DNA of 64,000 nt. It comes from Bdellovibrionota bacterium. GTDB taxonomy: Bacteria; Bdellovibrionota; UBA2428. This document shows, in pieces, positions 28,968-42,591 of the stretch. The notes below the pieces were generated by a model. It made no database searches. It was not told the origin of the DNA and worked only from the letters and a program-made list of their open reading frames with translations. A program made the position numbers and the translations under genes. Numbering within the stretch: position 1 is the stretch's first letter; every line of letters begins with the position of its first letter. The stretch spans positions 192,651-256,650 of the forward strand of contig JAWKOD010000004.1 in NCBI GenBank assembly GCA_041391385.1, in the 5' to 3' direction.

Positions 28968-28989
28968 TTTTATTTTTATTGGACGTCTA

Positions 28990-30312
28990 GGTTAAGTCTT
29001 TCTTGGGAACCTTGAGAAGACTTTATTCTAGCCTCAACATCGTCAACGTAGTGGTAGGCTCTGCCGATGATTGAGAGGGCTAAGAATTGATCTTGGATGA
29101 GAAGCAGGCCAAAGCTCTTACGTAGATCATGAATGTTTTCTTTAAATCGTCTTTATATTTTTGAAAGGCGGCTTCTTTTGCGGCTCTTTAAAGCTTCCCC
29201 ATTTTCTTCTGTGCTCATAAGAATTTGCTCGTCAGCATTTCATAAGAGCTGAGGCACATTTATGTTGAAGAGGGCTTTCCTCAGTCGGATCGTAGTTGAT
29301 GGGAGTTGCTTTGAGTGTAAAAGAGCTGTATCTGGCCATTGAAGTTGTTTCGGGAATAGAGAGAAATAGTGTCGTGACTTTTAATGTTTGCGAGACCAGA
29401 GGGAGTTATATTGAGTGAAAGCTTGTTCAGTAAAAGTGTTCGCTGAGAACTGGAGAATCATCTACTTTGGATTTTTTACAAAGTTGTTGGGGTCTGCTGC
29501 AAAGTTGAGGTCGCTTGAAACAAAACTAAGTTCGAGTGTACAGCTCATGGAAGAATTAAAGCTTTGCTCAACGGAATCTCTATGAGATCGCGGATGTCTT
29601 GGGACTTAGGCGCATATCGAAGCTCTTCTCCGTCACAGCTTGTGACTCTTGCTAAATAACGAGTGGGAATTGCAAATGCATTTGGGTCTGAGAGGGCACC
29701 TATCAGGAGATGGCTAGTCGTTTTTATATCGATCCAGAACTTTGAGAGATTGTACTGAGTCCGACTATCTTCAACTCCACATCAGCTGTGGCATCTTTCG
29801 GACTAATGGGTCACAGAAGCTAGCATAGCCGAGTGCAACGTTGGCAATAATAATTGTTTGAGTATTATAGAATCACTGTATGAATAGCGGGGTTACTGTT
29901 TTATGACATCTAGGGGGGACTTTGGCTTTATAGGAGTTCTTGGATTTGATCTGAGACATTTGAGTGCTGGGCATGGTGATTGAGAGTATTCATCCGCACG
30001 ACTGCTTATTTGCAAGAGTGAGTGACAGAGCACTGTGAAGAAACGAATTTTCGTATTGTAGAGTGTATTTTTCATAATATATACTTTCTAAAGGCACCTT
30101 TCTAAAGAAATGGTTTTGAGATTTTATTTCAAAATAGTATTTTCCATCGTCTGATTTTCTGAGATGAAGCACTTGGCTCTGTCGTAGATGAGGCTATCGA
30201 GCCGTACTTTTTTTTCAGCAAGAATTTCTCGGCAATAGAGCAGAGCATCTTTTTAAGAAGAAAAACTTAGGGAATCGGTGAGTCTTGTAGTGAAGGCTGC
30301 TTTCGATGAGTT
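28990..30312 (-). pseudogene. Unresolved decayed coding remnants; no ORF above 60 aa
   Basis: Minus-strand translation yields protein-like stretches in shifting frames interrupted by stops. Examples: ...WIDIKTTSHLLIGALSDPNAFAIPTRYLARVTSCDGEELRY..., ...RFKENIHDLRKSFGLLLIQDQFLALSIIGRAYHYVDDVEA..., DGKYYFEIKSQNHFF... Boundaries are approximate. Confidence 0.4.
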
Positions 30313-30761
30313 TCAGGGACTTTCGCTGAGTTTGGCTACACCCCAAATACTTAACGTATGGACTTCGATTTGTAGAATGTCTTGAGTTTCCCATTTTTTA
30401 GTGGGAACTTTTTTGATAAATTGGGGTTTCAGTAAATCGATAATAACCCCAGTAGTCTCCCTCTTCTTCTCGGCTGAGACCCTTGAATATCCATTTCTCG
30501 CCACGAGTGTAACCTAAAACTTTTTCTTCAATCTCTTTGTGTCCAATTTTGCAGTAAGACATAAAAGTATTTGCGTCTGTTGAGTTCCTTGTATTGAACG
30601 CAAATCCTAAGGCTTCCTCTACACTAAAGCTTTTGTCCGTTTTTGGTAACTGAGTATCAATTGTGGGGATATTCTTGGAAGTGGTGGCTCGTTAGAGGAA
30701 TTTTTGAGCTGCAAGGACGTAGTTACTTAAGAGGAGTGAGGTGAGTAGTTTTTTTTCTCAT
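30313..30761 (-). pseudogene. Decayed small secreted-protein gene (copy C of the tandem set)
   Basis: ATG 30761 is followed by AG + A8. The signal peptide (LLTSLLLSNYVLAAQ) lies in another frame. There is an in-frame TAA after AAQKFL and a further shift at an A6 run. The remaining sequence reads ...GYTRGEKWIFKGLSREEEGDYWGYYRFTE... Confidence 0.5.
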
Positions 30762-31276
30762 TACCAGTACCCCGTCATCTTTCGAATTGCTTTGAGATTC
30801 TCCATTGGGTGCATATCCCTGATTCTGGAGAGCAAACCCCTTGCTTTTTTGAGACGTTCAAGTACAATATTTACTACTTGTACGGTGTCTCTTTCTGTTC
30901 GTCCGTAACTTCGATAGCTATTATTAAAATGATCAGAGAGCTTAATGTCTCCATATATTTGTCAGATCCTCGAATGGAGTAAGCCCTATTGGAGGCATGA
31001 ATATAGCATTTGAGTTTCCGAAGGTTGTATTGATTGAGGCTAAATTCATATCAAGAGAGCCTTCGAACCGTAGGTGAGGCATCAATTCGCACTCCGTTAA
31101 TGGTTAAATTGCTTGTGTTGTTTTGGTATTCGTCATGCCTTGGTGGATAATCCTCCAAGTAAAGCACTCTTCTGGGAGGAGGAGGTGGTGGGGGTGCTTG
31201 ACGTTGCATTCCGTAGCTTGCAGTTAAGGAAAAGTTGCTCAGTAAAACAATAAGATTAAGAGAGTATTTTTTTCAT
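30761..31276 (-). pseudogene. Decayed small secreted-protein gene (copy A, paralog of copy B)
   Basis: ATG 31276 is followed by an A7 run where A6 would keep MKKYSLNLIVLLSNFSLTASYG in frame. There is an in-frame TGA (…PTVRRLS*YEF…) and another shift. It ends …KMTGYW* at TAA 30761-30763. It aligns with copy B through NGV(R/E)IDA…KLKCYI…YS(I/L)RG.DKYMETL…R(T)(E/N)RDTV.V.N…. Confidence 0.6.
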
Positions 31277-31783
31277 TACCAGTACTCGTCATCTTTTGTA
31301 GGCTTTTCTTGGGCTTTTCAACTTCTACATGGTTATTTTCTACATGGTTATTGGGGATGTAGCCTTTTGAGCTTTCAGAGCAAACACCTGCTTTTATAAG
31401 GCGACCGAGCAATAGGTTTGCAACATAGACGGTGTCTCTGTTTGTTCGAGAGCTGGAATACCTTGAGAAATCTGTAATAATATTTCGTTTTAAGGAGGCA
31501 AGTGAGTTCAACGTCTCCATATTTGTCTTTGCCGCGAAGGGAGTATGAATTTCCGTAATCATTAATGTAGCATTTGAGTTTCCATAGGTTTTGCTGGTGA
31601 AGTCTAAGATAGTCGTAAATCCCTGACTGCACGGGCCATGCATCAATTTCTACGCCATTGAGAACGAAAGCATTTCTTTGGGATAGCTTGATTTTTAACT
31701 TTTTTATTAGCTGCAAAGCTTATTGATATAAAAGCACTTAGCAGAATAAAAGCATGGGAGTGTTTTGATACTTTAGTTTTCAT
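31276..31783 (-). pseudogene. Decayed small secreted-protein gene (copy B)
   Basis: ATG 31783 opens the signal peptide MKTKVSKHSHAFILLSAFISISFAA. The frame shifts in an A-rich stretch. Relative to copy A there is a 2-nt (AT) deletion in AAATAT(AT)GGAGAC and a 1-nt loss just before the YW* end. Track ORFs 31375-31716 and 31239-31646 are its two main frames. Confidence 0.6.
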
Positions 31784-31887
31784 TTGCACCTGGAAGTGAG
31801 GCTTTAGCAAAGGGGGCTTTAAGGAGTCTCGGAGAAGTCTGACATTCTGACATTTTTCTTGATGCGCAGCGTAATTTGCTGTAGCTT

Positions 31888-33205
31888 GTGCATGTGAAAA
31901 TACTTCTCAAACTGCTCTCTGTGCTTGTTGTATGTTTTTCGCAAGCATCTGATTTTACAGCCGTTTATTTAACTTTACCACACTCTTCCGATGAGCCTCA
32001 CCCTCTCAATGAAGCACCAGCAAAGCATGTTTCGTGTACGAGTCAGCTCATTAAGGTGGGCGGTAGGTGCTATTTAATAAGTACGGATCATTGTCAGGCC
32101 TCGGGGCATACAAAAGTAGCCTTTACTACGCTAAAGAAAAACAAAATTTAAGTTTAAAAAATCTTCGAAAAGCTCGGCTCTTGATTTGAGAGAGTACGAA
32201 GTCCCTGCTGAGTTGAAGGAAGATTGTGAGGACTTATTACTCAGATAAGCGCATTGTAAGCACAGCGGAAGTTCTTGAACGCAAAGAGCTTTATTCCTTT
32301 AAGTTAAAAGGTTTTGTTAACCATCAGTACAGAGAAGAATTTTCTCGGGAGAAGATTGGGCAAGGTGGTTATGCCTACGCTTACATAGATCTTTTGCCTA
32401 TGGGCGCAGTGGATTGGTTTGAACTTGATAAAGTACAAATGTTTCCCGGAATGAGGCTGCGGAATCCATTCAGGACTCCTTTGTTGGAATATCTTATATC
32501 TACATGCAAGATGTGAGTATCGTTGTGCCCTATGCAAGTATTGTTAGATTTCTTCAAACAAGCGAGCTCACTTCCCTTCGAAGCTCCGGTGGAGCATTCA
32601 TAGTCAAAAAGTTCCGTTCAACCTGCAGCAGATAATCTTAAAGGGTGGTGGCGGGAATGAGCACGCAAGGGTGCGGGCAATGAACATTCCAAGGGCATGA
32701 CTGGTATATAGCTCAGAGGCAGGAGCCGTTACATGTATTAGAGATGACTCAGGAGCCGGATGAAGGGGTCGTTTCTCCTGCAAATTCAAAGCTTAGAATT
32801 TTAGGCATCGATGGAGAGCAGGTAGATGGTTGGGACGACTATAGTCTTTCACGCTCAAGCGACATGTCCAAAGTGCAAGTGATAACACGTGAAAATTCTA
32901 AGGGTTCATACCCAGACCTAAAAATCAGAAAGAAACTACTCGATCGCTTTGATGGTTATTACAGCTCGATTTTAACAATGGAAAGCCAAAAGCATTTGAT
33001 TTTTGTTCCAGATATTCAAAACCCTTTGGGCTGGCGGATTGGTTATAGTGCAATGCCTCTTGTGGATATCAATATTGAAGGTGACACGATAAGCATTAGC
33101 ACAGGCATCCACGGATTTACTCAGAGAGGGCGTGCCGTTCAGGGCTTTTCAAATTCAGATCCCATTCCTAAAATGCAAATGAAGGAAGACATTTTCTTAA
33201 GGTGA
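31888..33205 (+). pseudogene. Decayed secreted trypsin-like serine protease, paralog of 41371-42591
   Basis: Signal peptide VKILLKLLSVLVVCFSQA. The His region reads GGRCYLISTDHC. The remainder is scattered over three frames with stops: ...ALDLREYEVP..., ...YASIVRFLQTSELTSLRSSGGAFIV... (Ser motif). The last 153 codons (32744-33205) are intact. It parallels LTSAHV / ADVDLLEV / YESLIRFNLLSGMSGAPV in the intact paralog. Confidence 0.6.
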
Positions 33206-33564
33206 ACTTTGATCCTGAGTATAAAGCAATGCAGATTTCTGGCAGGCAGTATAATTTAAACTCATTGGGAGATCCTCGAGAGTTTGCACTCTCATGGACC
33301 TGTAAAAATCAACAATACTTAAAGATCATTTGTGAGTCTCGCGGCAATGGCCAACGTTATTCAAATTTAAGTCTTTCAAAGAGTAGTGAAGGAGATCATT
33401 CGGTATTGAGGTTTCGGCTCACTTATTTTGAAACGATTAATCAAGTACCTGTTTATCATTATTACTACGGTATAGCCGTGAAGAGCGTTTCGACTCGTCA
33501 AATGCGAAAGGCTCATTGGAGTACTTTTCCCTATGACAAAAAAGGGAGAACGTTTAAGAAATGA
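33202..33564 (+). CDS. Hypothetical protein, translationally coupled on both sides
   Basis: 120-aa ORF. Its GTG overlaps the upstream stop (GTGA) and its stop overlaps the next ATG (ATGA). No signal peptide and no recognisable motif. Confidence 0.5.
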   Translation: MNFDPEYKAMQISGRQYNLNSLGDPREFALSWTCKNQQYLKIICESRGNGQRYSNLSLSKSSEGDHSVLRFRLTYFETINQVPVYHYYYGIAVKSVSTRQMRKAHWSTFPYDKKGRTFKK

Positions 33565-34745
33565 GAAAAATTTATTCTGAGGCTTACCTTATGGGGATTC
33601 AGGCCTTCATCGATTCAGATTTAGCATCACTTAATAAGTACATTCAAAAAACTGAACACTCCTATGAAAGAAAACTTTTAAAAGTTCGCCAGTACATGGC
33701 AGTCTCAGAAAACTCAAAAGCCTTAGAATTGTGTTTAAGTGTTGCAAGCTTTCCTTTAGCAGCTTTTGCTGAGAAAAACTTCTTGTTGGCAACCTTATAT
33801 TTTTCTAAAAGGTTTTATGAAAAAGCTGCCTATCATGGGTCACTCGCGCTAGAGACTTTTCAGAAATTATCATTACCCGAGCGTATTTTTAAGTCTTACT
33901 ATAATTTGTCAGTCACTTATTCTGAGTTGCGTTGGAATGATATGAGTAAATTGTATTTGGATAGAGCCATTGAGAGTGCTACGAGTACTGAGGATAAATT
34001 AGATGTCATGCGCGCCAAAGCTTGCCATCATTCTGTGAACAACGAGTATCCCAAAGCTAAAGAAGTCTTAAGCGAAATGCAGGAGTTGATTTTAGATCTT
34101 GAAAGCTATGATGTGGAAATGTTCTGGCTCATTGCTTCCGATATTCATATTTGGGCTAAGGAGTATCCTGAGGCTTCGCGCTGTTTATCAAGGATAAAAA
34201 AACGTGTGAACTTTGCTTATAGGGAGCGACTCTTTACTCAGAGAACTTTGCTGGATTTTATTCTTATTCCTTCACAGCCTTTGACACTCCCTAAGCTTCC
34301 TAAGATTTTCACAACAGATTCGGAGTTTTTTCTTCAATTGAGTTTTTTAAGGGCACTGCAAGACGGAGATTTAAGGTCTTCTCAGGCCTTTTGGAATTCC
34401 TTGTGTCAATTGCGTCCACAAGTATATGGGGCTTCTTACGTGTGCCTATCGCATGTTGACAAGCGAAATGCTTTTTTTCAATGCCTTGATAAGTTGAGGA
34501 CTCCATTCATTAAGGCAGGCGAGGTACCCGTTCTTAGTGGAAAGCTTAAAGTTGCTTATGAGTCGCTTTCGTTAAGTCGGGTTCCACTTAGAAAAGAAGA
34601 GTGGATTGAGAAGATATGGGGAGTGCCTTATTCCACCGAGTTTGATTCTCGCTTTTATAAGTTAGTTGAACGCTTAAAGACAAAAATCCCACAGAGTCTT
34701 TTGCAAAAAAACAGGGCTTATATCTTGGGCTCAAAGTATAATTAG
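33561..34745 (+). CDS. Transcriptional regulator: N-terminal TPR-like helical repeat domain plus C-terminal OmpR/PhoB-type winged helix
   Basis: 394 aa. The C-terminus LSGKLKVAYESLSLSRVPLRKEEWIEKIWGVPYSTEFDSRFYKLVERLKTKIP...NRAYIL follows the trans_reg_C pattern (L..E..LL..L......s.e.L...vWg......r.l.v.i.rLRkKi....GY.L). Upstream are about 320 aa of TPR-like helices (YYNLSVTYSELRWNDMSKLYLDRAIE...). There is no receiver domain. Confidence 0.7.
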   Translation: MRKIYSEAYLMGIQAFIDSDLASLNKYIQKTEHSYERKLLKVRQYMAVSENSKALELCLSVASFPLAAFAEKNFLLATLYFSKRFYEKAAYHGSLALETFQKLSLPERIFKSYYNLSVTYSELRWNDMSKLYLDRAIESATSTEDKLDVMRAKACHHSVNNEYPKAKEVLSEMQELILDLESYDVEMFWLIASDIHIWAKEYPEASRCLSRIKKRVNFAYRERLFTQRTLLDFILIPSQPLTLPKLPKIFTTDSEFFLQLSFLRALQDGDLRSSQAFWNSLCQLRPQVYGASYVCLSHVDKRNAFFQCLDKLRTPFIKAGEVPVLSGKLKVAYESLSLSRVPLRKEEWIEKIWGVPYSTEFDSRFYKLVERLKTKIPQSLLQKNRAYILGSKYN

Positions 34746-39703: not shown

Positions 39704-40080
39704 TCTTCTCCTTTGTCGCAAACGATTTTTCCGTAATCACATTTTAAGACAGGTCCATCGAGCAGGTATGCACCTAGTGCGCCTTGCATACGCGCTGAAC
39801 ACCACGTTTTACATTTATTGAGAGTGTTGTATCGAGCTTCATACTCACTTCGGCCGCCCGAAAGAATTTGCGTAGACGCGTTTCTATTTTGTAAATAAAT
39901 CGCTCCTGCAGATGCGGAGCCACCCGGAATTGTGGAACAGTTCATTAAACAGTAATAAGGGCCTCGAATATGCTGCTCTTGAATTTCACGAGCAACTTTG
40001 CGGCTTCTAGCTTCGGAATGTTGGCTAGCAATGATCCCTGTAAGGACCACTAGAATATAGAATAGTTTTGAGTTTTTCAT
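39700..40080 (-). CDS. Small secreted cysteine-rich protein, hypothetical
   Basis: MKNSKLFYILVVLTGIIASQHSEA signal peptide with 6 Cys in about 100 mature residues. Confidence 0.55.
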   Translation of the reverse strand: MKNSKLFYILVVLTGIIASQHSEARSRKVAREIQEQHIRGPYYCLMNCSTIPGGSASAGAIYLQNRNASTQILSGGRSEYEARYNTLNKCKTWCSARMQGALGAYLLDGPVLKCDYGKIVCDKGEE

Positions 40081-40224
40081 GTCATTTACCTTTCTCTGAG
40101 CGGTATAGGTTGGACATGCCTTAGGGGCGAGTTACATGAGGTTACAAGTGCGGATTCGAGGGGGATTCTCCTTGACCAGTAACGCATTGCGTAATAGCGT
40201 ATTTCCCCAAGGGCTACCTCATTT

Positions 40225-41370
40225 ATGCAAACGACGAATTTTCAAAAAACTCAATGGATTCAGGTGCTTGAGGCCTCTGTCTGTGAGTTGCATAAGTTTA
40301 GCCTTCAGGGCACTCAGAGTAGGGACTTGAGCTCTTATATCCAGGTCTTAATCGCCTATCATGAGTCTAATCTGGAGCGCTTGAGGCTTTATTCGTCTCA
40401 TCAATGGGAGTGTCAGTTTCTTAAGGTCATTTGCGAGTTGCGTTTGGGGATAAGAGAGAAAAGTCTTTCCCCTGAAAAGCTTTTGGCTTTAGCAGATTTC
40501 GTTCAATCTCAGCCTGCTATGAGCGTGCTTGATGAAGTCTTAAAGGGCGAAGCTATTTTGTATGGGTTTTGCGTCTGAAAGTGTTGCGGATTTAACAAGA
40601 GCAATCCATTTACGATGAGGCTGCTAAAATATTCACGCGCAGCATTCTTCAGAAAAGAAAGCTCTGAAAGCTCTGTTTAATTCCCTCGCTTGTAAAAGTC
40701 GAAGTACAGCAGCGGGACGCTATTTAAGTGATTGTTACTTTGTAATTCGAGAGGCGTCACGTTTGGGTGAGTCTTCAGTTGAAAGCATGGCACGGCACAA
40801 TTTGTCGTATGAGTTATTGAAGCTCGGACAACGGAAGAAGCCACTTCACGAAGCTCTACTTGCACTGGAGTTGTGTCGAGATCATTTTGCTAACTTTAAT
40901 GAAGTTCAGATCCGTCTACACCTTGCAGCCTCTTCAAATTGGAGATTACAGCGAAGCCAAGCGCCATATGAGTTTTGCTAAAATTACGGAGTTTCCTGAA
41001 GCATGGAGGCATTGAAGTATTTAGAGAATACTTATCTAGGCGTAACATGTTATTGATTCTTCCAAAATGACCTTTAATTGGCAAAAAGGCTTTTAAGAAA
41101 AAAGCGTCTTTAAGTTTCAAAAAGAGAAACCCTCTTGGAAGAACTGAAGCTTTCAACTCTTGAAAGTCGTTGTCTAAAACAGTTGGCCGAAGGTCCCATG
41201 AAGATAAGTTTATCGATTGCTGGAGTAAATATATGGAAGCAAAGGAAGCTATTTTTCTCTCGAAAACAGGCTTAAAAGTCCTTCTGAATAGATTGCGAAA
41301 AAAGATCCCCAATGAAATTCATTTTTTTAAAGGTCAGTATTTTCTTAAAGATAAAAGTCTTCGCAGTATA
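40225..41370 (+). pseudogene. Decayed TPR + winged-helix regulator, paralog of 33561-34745
   Basis: The span (about 1.15 kb) equals the length of the intact paralog. A 117-aa N-terminal ORF is followed by TPR-like pieces in shifting frames with stops (…GDYSEAKRHMSFAKITEFPEA…). The wHTH is split between frames: …LSTLESRCLKQLAEGP | RSHEDKFIDCWSKYMEAKEAIFLSKTGLKVLLNRLRKKIPNEIHFFKGQYFL. Confidence 0.6.
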
Positions 41371-42591
41371 TTGATCATAGTTTCTCTTCTTGCTGCAAAT
41401 CTCCTGAAAGCTGCTAATGCCTTTCCTGTTATTGATTCTTCACTTCTAAGAGTTTGCTCGCAGTATTCCAATGCTCCTGCTCCAATTTGTGGAGTAGGCA
41501 CTTATGTGCAAAAAGGATCAAAGTATTTTGTTCTAACGAGTGCTCATGTGTCGCATGGAGATTTGGGTCTTTCTGTGGCTTTAATAGGTAATTCCAAAGA
41601 GAGTTTAAGAGTTATTTCTAGAGCATCGAATACATTGGCAGATGTGGACTTGCTTGAAGTTCAAGCGCATCCTTTGCTTAAGGCTCTTTTTGTTTGGGAT
41701 TCATACTATGATGCTTTTGTTGTTCCAGATCTTGAAAAATGGAATTGGCACTTTCTCATTGGGCGATCCAAGATGGAAGATGCACCGAGCCCAATGTGGT
41801 TACATAATCTAGGATGGACTTCTGCTCTCATATTACCAAGCCAGGATCAACGTGTGAGTCCACTAAAGGGTGAAGAGTTTTATGAGCAGTTTTATCCAGC
41901 GCAGGCTGGATTTGAAAACAGAAGAAGTTTTTCTAAAAGCTTAGATCCTTATGAAAGCCTCATTCGCTTTAACCTTTTATCGGGAATGAGTGGTGCACCT
42001 GTCATAACAAGCGTTGCTCAGCCCTTTCACGTAAGACTCTCTTCAATTGCTACACGGGCGCACCGATATTCTCCCTTGAGCTATTTTGCGCTTTTGGATG
42101 ACGTTCTTCCCTCTTTGCTAAAAGGTAAGAGTTTGAGTAAACAACCTCGTTGGAATTTTAGTGAGGGGCTTTTGTGTCGCTCGACTGAGGATGGAACAAG
42201 GGAGGCGGCGCTCGTTGTTAAAGAACGAGGAGATTGGGGGTCTGCTGATGGTGGGGATTGGGGATCTGCCGACGGAGGCGAGGGGAGTGGGCAATCTAAA
42301 CAATCGCTTAAGTTTATGTATAGGGGAGAATCTATCTTGGGGTGGAAGGTTGCAGTATCGAGGAAGCAATCTGTTTTCTTTCATGGAAGTTTTTCTAATT
42401 ATAGAAGTCTCGAGCGTGAAAATCTTTTGAAGAAAGCCGTACCCATCTCTCTTGGATCTAAGCTAGTTTTTGACCCTTATTGGAGAACTGAGCTGTCACT
42501 TGTCAATGAAAGTGACGATAGTCTTAGCTTTAAAGACAATAAAGTAACAGTTAAACTTGCACGTGAAAAAATATCTTTCTACTTTAAATGA
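41371..42591 (+). CDS. Secreted trypsin-like (S1-type) serine protease with a C-terminal extension; start uncertain
   Basis: Signal-like LIIVSLLAANLLKAANA. Triad candidates are LTSAHV (His), ADVDLLEV (Asp) and LLSGMSGAPV (Ser). The ORF is open from 41170 because it runs in frame with the remnant of the upstream regulator. There is no ATG, and in-frame TTG 41371 is the best start I could find. Confidence 0.65.
   Translation: MIIVSLLAANLLKAANAFPVIDSSLLRVCSQYSNAPAPICGVGTYVQKGSKYFVLTSAHVSHGDLGLSVALIGNSKESLRVISRASNTLADVDLLEVQAHPLLKALFVWDSYYDAFVVPDLEKWNWHFLIGRSKMEDAPSPMWLHNLGWTSALILPSQDQRVSPLKGEEFYEQFYPAQAGFENRRSFSKSLDPYESLIRFNLLSGMSGAPVITSVAQPFHVRLSSIATRAHRYSPLSYFALLDDVLPSLLKGKSLSKQPRWNFSEGLLCRSTEDGTREAALVVKERGDWGSADGGDWGSADGGEGSGQSKQSLKFMYRGESILGWKVAVSRKQSVFFHGSFSNYRSLERENLLKKAVPISLGSKLVFDPYWRTELSLVNESDDSLSFKDNKVTVKLAREKISFYFK
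42229..42276 (+). repeat. 2 x 24-nt imperfect tandem repeat inside the protease gene (GDWGSADG x2)
   Basis: GGAGATTGGGGGTCTGCTGATGGT / GGGGATTGGGGATCTGCCGACGGA. Confidence 0.85.

Follow-up and report, generated by a model that had tools for sequence, protein, structure and literature searches.

Several described systems resemble in part the gene analyzed here. The SARP/AfsR proteins combine an OmpR-type winged helix-turn-helix (wHTH) domain with tetratricopeptide repeats (TPRs) in a one-component regulator (PMC10936776). In these proteins, as in those of the HilA type, the wHTH is N-terminal. MalT and the LAL proteins place a helical-repeat sensor first and the DNA-binding domain last, the latter being a LuxR-type helix-turn-helix (HTH) in a protein that also carries a STAND ATPase. 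The RRNPP proteins (Rap, NprR, PlcR, and PrgX) are cytoplasmic TPR proteins that have an N-terminal XRE-type HTH or none, and their genes are coupled to that of a short propeptide. The known range of RRNPP systems is given as the Firmicutes together with the mobile elements of these bacteria (PMC10075063). Here we describe a 64-kb stretch of a Bdellovibrionota metagenome-assembled genome (MAG; contig JAWKOD010000004.1, positions 192,651 to 256,650, called the window below), in which the plus strand open reading frame (ORF) 33561-34745 encodes a predicted 394-amino acid (aa) TPR-wHTH one-component regulator. We hold it highly probable that this regulator is intact, that it belongs to an uncharacterized family encoded in protease-coupled cassettes, that a candidate operator precedes the cassette, and that the protease gene beside it in the window is a pseudogene. 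Little is understood of regulation in Bdellovibrio-like predators, and to our knowledge no regulator has been described for most of the hydrolases that they secrete.

The regulator ORF begins with ATG and runs for 1185 nucleotides (nt) without a stop codon or frame change. Its product matches the profile of its family over the full length (E 5e-112) and keeps every invariant or near-invariant residue of the family (F110, N115, W278, L281, P286, F305, L336, K345, W353, L368, and Y387). An AlphaFold2 model built on a 111-sequence family alignment (A2) gave a predicted local distance difference test (pLDDT) score of 94.6 and a predicted template modeling score (pTM) of 0.90, with about 16 helices across residues 7-312 and the wHTH thereafter. 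Residues 1 to ~312 (33561-34496) are modeled as helix pairs wound into a TPR-like superhelix, and a consensus/designed TPR protein was the top Foldseek match. Other whole-model matches included NprR, Rap, MalT domain III, and PCI subunits of the proteasome lid. The best template modeling (TM) scores were those of MalT domain III (0.58/0.62), with NprR and Rap at 0.45-0.55, so the resemblance to the sugar-sensing domain of MalT is at least as good as that to the RRNPP receptors. Within the family TPR_12 or TPR_2 matched 46-47 of the 111 members and TPR_MalT matched eight, and the TPR part aligned with that of a 635-aa protein family described below (hhalign E 1.8e-15). The window protein alone gave only sub-threshold TPR matches (TPR_8, 19.8 bits against a 25.7 cut-off). 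N115, which lies in a YNLS sequence, was considered as a peptide-clamp residue and rejected, since it is plain TPR consensus.

The C-terminal domain (residues ~325-390, 34533-34730) is an OmpR/PhoB-type wHTH as judged by its modeled fold, by profile searches, and by the Pfam matches of its family. In the model a three-helix bundle that includes the recognition helix (residues 327-338, 345-353, and 359-375) is followed by a β-hairpin wing (strands 380-383 and 386-389). When the last 95 residues were modeled separately (pLDDT 83) and submitted to Foldseek, OmpR/PhoB effector domains made up almost all of the roughly 40 best matches, with a probability of about 1. These included PhoP, RegX3, VicR, RstA, CssR, CovR, OmpR, PhoB, KdpE, and AfsR, at root-mean-square deviations of 2.5-3 Å over 72-79 columns. 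A profile of the C-terminal domain searched against the PDB sequences returned OmpR/PhoB DNA-binding domains as 14 of its 14 best matches. Note that this result required the C-terminal sub-profile, the full-length family profile having returned only noise (e.g. the IL-21 receptor). Trans_reg_C (PF00486) matched 18 of the 111 family members at E ≤ 0.01 (best E 5.9e-6), and the domain aligned in register with the Pfam-significant Trans_reg_C of the 635-aa family (hhalign E 9.4e-5). The regulator family has the recognition-helix pattern R-x-Y-K-L-I-E-R-L-K, as OmpR/PhoB domains do. The window protein itself gave no Trans_reg_C match at E ≤ 1 and its C-terminal 80 aa none at E ≤ 10, which leaves it short of the gathering score, and its closest relative scored 13.9 bits against a cut-off of 26.2. 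Because the window protein is sub-threshold when taken alone, its domains were called from the alignment of the family, from the model, and from the fold search, and it is the agreement of four independent lines (fold, PDB profile, Pfam matches of members, and hhalign) that carries the OmpR/PhoB assignment. The canonical N-terminal four-stranded β-sheet of the effector domain is absent from the model, which has helices and a loop at residues ~299-326 instead.

Pfam searches of the regulator and its family found no Response_reg receiver with its phospho-acceptor Asp, and residues 1-312 are all-helical in the model; nor did they find BTAD, NOD/ATPase, or GerE domains. Neither Pfam nor the model gave an N-terminal HTH in the regulator. 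As modeled, the protein is thus a cytoplasmic protein in which a TPR superhelix of about 310 aa is followed by a truncated OmpR/PhoB-type wHTH, with no receiver. This is the arrangement that the initial annotation had read from the DNA letters, and the modeling of the regulator alone and the profile comparisons with Trans_reg_C and TPR that it called for all agree with it, as does the C-terminal position of the wHTH with the reversal of order that it saw relative to response regulators and SARPs. Compared with OmpR/PhoB response regulators, the protein shares the wHTH fold, recognizable sequence similarity, and a likely tandem direct repeat target, but lacks the receiver, the phospho-acceptor, and the N-terminal β-sheet, has a TPR input, and would bind units at 8-bp spacing. 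The SARP/AfsR and HilA-type proteins likewise combine an OmpR-type wHTH with TPRs, and the AfsR SARP domain was among the fold matches, but the 394-aa protein has its wHTH at the other end and neither BTAD nor NOD/ATPase. MalT and the LAL proteins share its sensor-first, DNA-binding-last order, its best TM score, and the TPR_MalT matches seen in the family and in the 635-aa relative. In contrast to these, the protein is much smaller, lacks a STAND ATPase, and ends in an OmpR-type rather than a LuxR-type domain. As with the RRNPP proteins, the gene of a cytoplasmic TPR protein is tightly coupled to a secreted-protein gene. Unlike them, the 394-aa protein ends in its wHTH, is paired with a protease of 560 aa (or, in the sister subfamily, with a secreted protein of 150-200 aa), and occurs in Gram-negative predators.

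The order of domains is not unique to this family. A 635-aa protein encoded on contig C2 of the same genome (L030 3340-5247) has TPR_12 (1e-20), TPR_MalT, and a C-terminal Trans_reg_C (1.6e-10) in Pfam. Its family gave 56 matches, and each one listed has PF00486 plus TPR. Its members are entered at NCBI as 'winged helix-turn-helix domain-containing protein [Bdellovibrionales/Bdellovibrionota]' and at JGI as 'TPR repeat protein'. The 635-aa and 394-aa families share the TPR-to-wHTH order, homology in both halves, the phylum, and an adjoining secreted-protein gene, but the former is about 240 aa longer, reaches the Pfam thresholds, and has no link to the protease or to the CTGAC repeat described below. 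The 3' end of the 635-aa gene overlaps a 195-aa ORF (L030 5222-5809) that has a signal-peptide-like N-terminus, so the pairing of a regulator with a secreted protein recurs in the longer family. Neither family has a known function, and our literature search found no paper on either. Judged from these sequences, the TPR-first, wHTH-last order is a recurrent and functionally unstudied theme of the Bdellovibrionota.

An exhaustive HMMER search at E ≤ 1e-3 gave 239 cluster representatives at 50% identity for the 394-aa family, nearly all of them 390-400 aa in length and matched end to end. A word-indexed search found only two relatives (each 401 aa and 40% identical to the regulator), and a locus search with a 3-sequence alignment found only two genome loci. 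The family is present in 32 of 401 sampled Bdellovibrionota genomes (~8%) and 17 of 204 genera, at one to four copies per genome. The named relatives are Bacteriovoracaceae and Oligoflexia MAGs, and five of the six other genomes of the same genus are without the family. No annotation beyond 'hypothetical' or 'TPR repeat protein' is attached to its members. By these searches, the 394-aa family is an uncharacterized family restricted to the Bdellovibrionota. We examined 34 loci, among which two subfamilies were distinguished, A (14 loci plus the window) and B (13 loci). In every locus examined the TPR-wHTH gene is tightly coupled to a gene encoding a secreted protein that carries a conserved Gly-rich peptide.

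In subfamily A, to which the window protein is closest, the regulator gene adjoins a protease gene in all 14 loci and the window. The regulator gene is mostly downstream with overlapping or abutting codons (overlapping or abutting stop and start codons are seen in L001, L024, L037, and L040), and upstream in four loci. A functional link between regulator and protease, which the initial annotation had surmised from the window only, is thus borne out by a pairing and tight coupling conserved in 15 loci. In the two closest relatives a single gene encoding a 583-585-aa signal-peptide protein precedes the regulator with overlapping stop and start codons; these cassettes adjoin zapA, rny, and tyrS, unlike the neighborhood in the window. 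In seven aligned intact partners, H68, D99, and S190 are invariant within the motifs NAHC, DLAE, and PGxSGG. One partner reached the Trypsin_2 gathering score (30.6 vs 27.6 bits) with others falling just below, and the best PDB profile matches of the partner were Deg/HtrA proteases. In the partners the protease domain is followed by one to eight tandem octapeptides, and these by a C-terminal domain of ~250 aa that is conserved and matched no known family. The octapeptide units (GGxNxHx[D/N/K]) vary in sequence among loci, with Asn4 and His6 recurring; those seen include GGENEHGK, GGENDHGN, GGKNTHSD, GGANSHSD, GGDNVHMN, GGGNGGTD, and GGNGPTNT. Partners bearing them are encoded in L001, L002, L021-L024, L034, L036, L037, and L040, and one unit is present in the window (32548-32700). 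The octapeptides may serve as a linker, bind metal, or be released as a peptide.

In subfamily B (L025-L028 and L041-L051, e.g. oriented positions 5531-5986 of L042 and 5532-6002 of L026) the regulator gene is always directly preceded by the gene of a secreted protein of 149-198 aa. The last residues of its signal peptide are AQ, with the Gln invariant, and next comes the sequence [IV]x[TS]GGG(G)P[D]. This protein has three or four conserved Cys residues and no Pfam match. Just upstream of its start codon, eight loci (L025, L042, L043, L045, and L047-L050) have the sequence T[AC]AAGTTT-N11-12-(A/G)CCGATAA, which we take to be a match to the sigma-28/FliA promoter consensus. Sigma-28 promoters are linked to the attack phase in Bdellovibrio, and the sequences suggest that subfamily B cassettes are subject to flagellar or attack-phase regulation.

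Upstream of the cassette in the window lies a tandem direct repeat with 8-bp spacing, two CTGACAT units separated by a T, which is a candidate operator. This perfect repeat, CTGACATTCTGACAT, occupies 31839-31853 on the plus strand and ends 34 nt 5' of the GTG at 31888. Its 13-nt core, CTGACNTNCTGAC, had this site as its single match in the 64-kb window when one mismatch was allowed. The exact core was found at two sites in the 2.8-Mb genome and the reversed control pattern at none. We then counted the 15-nt pattern CTGACWTYCTGACWT (≤1 mismatch) in the sense orientation in the 300 nt that precede the first gene of the cassette. It was present in 11 of the 15 subfamily A loci at distances of 21-179 nt, and L001 and L002 have a variant with three mismatches. 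Across 861 kb of all fetched loci, both strands included, the pattern had 15 matches, almost all at cassettes. The background rate therefore does not exceed 1.7e-5 per position, which amounts to ~0.005 for each upstream region of 300 nt, and against 11 of 15 observed chance is excluded. Since the partner proteins are only 25-40% identical, neutral conservation of the intergenic DNA is not expected either. Extra copies in inverse orientation lie beside neighboring genes (at 11802 in L001/L002, in L007, L040, and L022, and at 328971 on contig C3 of the same genome), which fits an operator better than a promoter hexamer or -35 element. A sigma-70 promoter scan found nothing 3' of the repeat, and the repeat is absent from the subfamily B loci. 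We conclude that CTGACWTYCTGACWT is likely to be the operator of the cassette.

OmpR/PhoB domains characteristically bind tandem direct repeats, and the half-site of the E. coli pho box, CTGTCAT, differs from CTGACAT by one base. The regulator would be a one-component transcription factor. In the manner of OmpR/PhoB-type domains, its wHTH would place it on the tandem repeat as a head-to-tail dimer, and it would control its own cassette plus the few neighboring genes that have extra copies of the repeat. The TPR domain would be the input, acting by ligand binding or by oligomerization. We lean, if only slightly, toward an interpretation in which the tandem CTGACWT repeat is bound by the regulator, the cassette and a few neighboring genes are under its control, and the TPR part is the input. 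Several points weigh against this picture or parts of it. The window protein reaches no Pfam threshold, and the E-values of its wHTH are individually weak (0.04-0.3 by Foldseek and 0.06-0.3 by PDB profile), which we attribute to the shortness of the domain. The repeat units are spaced by 8 bp rather than the 10-11 bp typical of OmpR/PhoB sites. A promoter role could account for some of the conservation, since CTGACA departs from the -35 consensus TTGACA at a single position. Sister subfamily B has a nearly identical recognition helix and is without the repeat, which is odd if the helix alone specifies the site. Finally, the partner gene is dead and the island around it is decaying, such that the regulator may be a relic that has not yet decayed.

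The setting of the cassette bears on this last point. In five genomes of the same genus nth is directly followed by pyrD, and in the sixth nupC lies about 870 nt after nth. The window segment 28968-36010, which lies between nth and pyrD, is therefore an insertion in a variable position. It comprises an ORF-poor stretch of ~2.9 kb (no ORF longer than 136 aa in 28968-31888), the cassette, and a nupC-like gene. The window has ~42% G + C, and Rfam and tRNA scans found no RNA genes in it. The cassette region contains five plus strand ORFs, those at 31888-32151 (87 aa), 32226-32516 (96 aa), 32744-33205 (153 aa), and 33202-33564 (120 aa, GTG start) in addition to the regulator, and NCBIfam had no match for any of the five.

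A profile of eight intact partner proteins, with which a tblastn search using the 583-aa partner P0004 agreed, mapped the region upstream of the regulator. The plus strand interval 31888-33564 is the remnant of one secreted Trypsin_2-like serine protease gene. If intact, it would encode about 560 aa, running from a signal peptide through a protease domain and a Gly-rich region of octapeptide repeats to the conserved C-terminal domain. Its pieces lie in frame 1 (31900-32130, the signal peptide and the His motif ending in HC), frame 2 (32141-32338, the Asp motif DL.E), frame 3 (32265-32453, up to FPGM), frame 2 again (32477-33151, with three in-frame stops), and frame 1 (33196-33510, the C-terminal part). 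A short frame 1 island at 32548-32700 holds the sole remaining octapeptide unit, GGGGNEH. There are at least four and probably about six frame changes plus the three in-frame stops within 1.7 kb. Of the catalytic triad the His and Asp motifs are retained, each in another frame. The GxSGG Ser motif is lost at the frame 3/frame 2 break and is not recoverable in the flank-homologous frames, which read NEAAE or RLRNP there. The regulator, nupC, pyrD, and hmgA-like ORFs nearby are unbroken. As the lesions are concentrated in 1.7 kb beside unbroken neighbors, we regard 31888-33564 as one true protease pseudogene and not an artifact. The cassette is an accessory element that is decaying in this genome.

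Another cassette in the window (40225-42591), a very distant one, shows the opposite condition, a decayed regulator gene followed by an apparently intact Trypsin_2-like protease gene (41371-42591). The decayed regulator still has a C-terminus with the sequence LKVLLNRLRKKIP followed by YFL, and the protease contains GDWGSADG twice near position ~42300. The CTGAC repeat is absent upstream of this cassette (40080-40225), and control of its intact protease by the intact regulator thus finds no support. Decay of these cassettes is recurrent, as a family member in genome G034 (L029/L019, contig C3 340253-341427) is also a pseudogene, split by two TGA codons and one TAA into two ORFs.

The most serious alternative is that the whole cassette is dead and the regulator an unexpressed or functionless relic that has yet to be disabled. 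The destroyed partner, the decay of the surrounding 7-kb insertion and of the regulator in the second cassette, the three in-frame stops of the G034 member, and the lack of the family in five of six genomes of the genus are all in keeping with it. However, the regulator has no lesion in 1185 nt beside 1.7 kb that has taken about six frame changes plus stops, and all of the family-invariant residues have been kept. The upstream repeat remains a perfect consensus copy, and the second exact core repeat in the genome is a possible remaining target. The regulator also has its own Shine-Dalgarno-like sequence, GGGAG (33544-33548, plus strand, 12 nt 5' of its ATG), which suggests that its translation does not depend on the broken upstream frame. 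We therefore consider a relic doubtful, although it is the alternative with the greatest claim to attention. If the regulator is still used here as an orphan, its other target might be, as a speculation, the repeat copy on contig C3.

A second alternative lays the frame breaks of 31888-33564 to sequencing or assembly errors of the MAG, the protease being intact in vivo. The break at 33196 does adjoin a run of four T residues, a context that would suit such an error. This explanation is unlikely given that about six frame changes and three stops fall within 1.7 kb while the neighboring ORFs are unbroken, that the Ser motif region reads as NEAAE or RLRNP, and that a single octapeptide unit is left. 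Less likely by some way is that the regulator is not a transcription factor but a PCI-like or TPR scaffold that uses its wHTH for protein-protein contacts. The PCI proteins (proteasome lid and CSN) found by Foldseek also consist of helical repeats with a C-terminal wHTH, but their TM scores are low (0.3-0.4), the isolated C-terminal domain matches the OmpR/PhoB type specifically, down to its recognition-helix pattern, and a conserved DNA repeat accompanies the gene.

The remaining alternative, that of the initial annotation, is hardly tenable. It has three genes co-translated (the C-terminal part of the protease, an independent 120-aa protein, and the regulator), and the TPR domain would take as its ligand either the 120-aa protein or a product of the protease. 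In its favor are GTGA and ATGA overlaps that are indeed present in the sequence (ORFs 33202-33564 and 33561-34745) and a TPR fold that resembles the peptide-binding RRNPP receptors, but the protease gene has at least four frame changes, in-frame stops, and no Ser motif, and the supposed small gene is a fragment of it. The 120-aa ORF (33202-33564, plus strand) is collinear with residues 460-564 of the single 583-aa protein P0004 (35% identity) and matches positions 456-541 of the partner profile, including the conserved C.N..YLK.IC motif. The homology begins at 33196, in the same frame and 5' of the GTG, and the GTGA overlap is a one-base frame change inside a formerly continuous protease gene. 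None of the relatives' loci examined has a separate small gene at this position. On the alignment, the ORF is not an independent gene, and this holds whether the breaks are taken as those of a pseudogene or as assembly errors. What had been counted as three genes is thus one broken protease gene plus the regulator. Being a pseudogene fragment, the 120-aa protein cannot be the ligand or partner of the TPR domain, and the protease cannot supply a signal here because its gene is dead. The 120-aa 'small ORF' is an annotation trap made by a frameshift.

The window copy teaches less than the family does, its locus being a decaying accessory cassette, and the findings on the family merit pursuit in an organism whose cassette is intact. 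What is newly defined is a phylum-restricted one-component regulator family with an unusual domain order, a partner secreted protease with octapeptides, a sharply delimited candidate operator, and a sister subfamily that lies behind sigma-28-like promoters. Control of a protease in predators thereby becomes directly testable in cultivable relatives.

The nature of the TPR ligand, be it a peptide or a small molecule, is a matter of speculation. The Gly-rich peptides hint at a peptide cue, and could equally be linkers or metal-binding repeats. In the protease subfamily they are the one to eight octapeptides GGxNxHx[D/N/K], and in subfamily B the sequence Q-[IV]-x-[TS]-G-G-G-(G)-P-D, which begins the mature secreted protein. 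In such a scheme a peptide, possibly cut out by the protease, would be released, re-imported, and bound by the TPR domain, thereby switching binding to CTGACWT, and the window copy would be a decayed, signal-blind system. The family would then be the receptor half of peptide-type signaling in Gram-negative predators, analogous to RRNPP and made of different parts, which we think improbable. Should the Gly-rich peptides turn out to act as signals, a TPR system that senses peptides would exist beyond the Firmicutes.

The other exact copy of CTGACNTNCTGAC in this genome is at contig C3:328971-328983 (L031 3472-3484). It lies 13 nt from the start of a minus strand gene that encodes a secreted protein of 232 aa, and it precedes an FmdB-like gene plus groES-groEL by ~440 nt. 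The proteins encoded beside this copy have no homologs near the other cassettes. The 232-aa ORF and a 299-aa ORF (together L031 1919-3459, minus strand) overlap by 58 nt in different frames, and from this overlap the two may be one frameshifted gene of about 500 aa.

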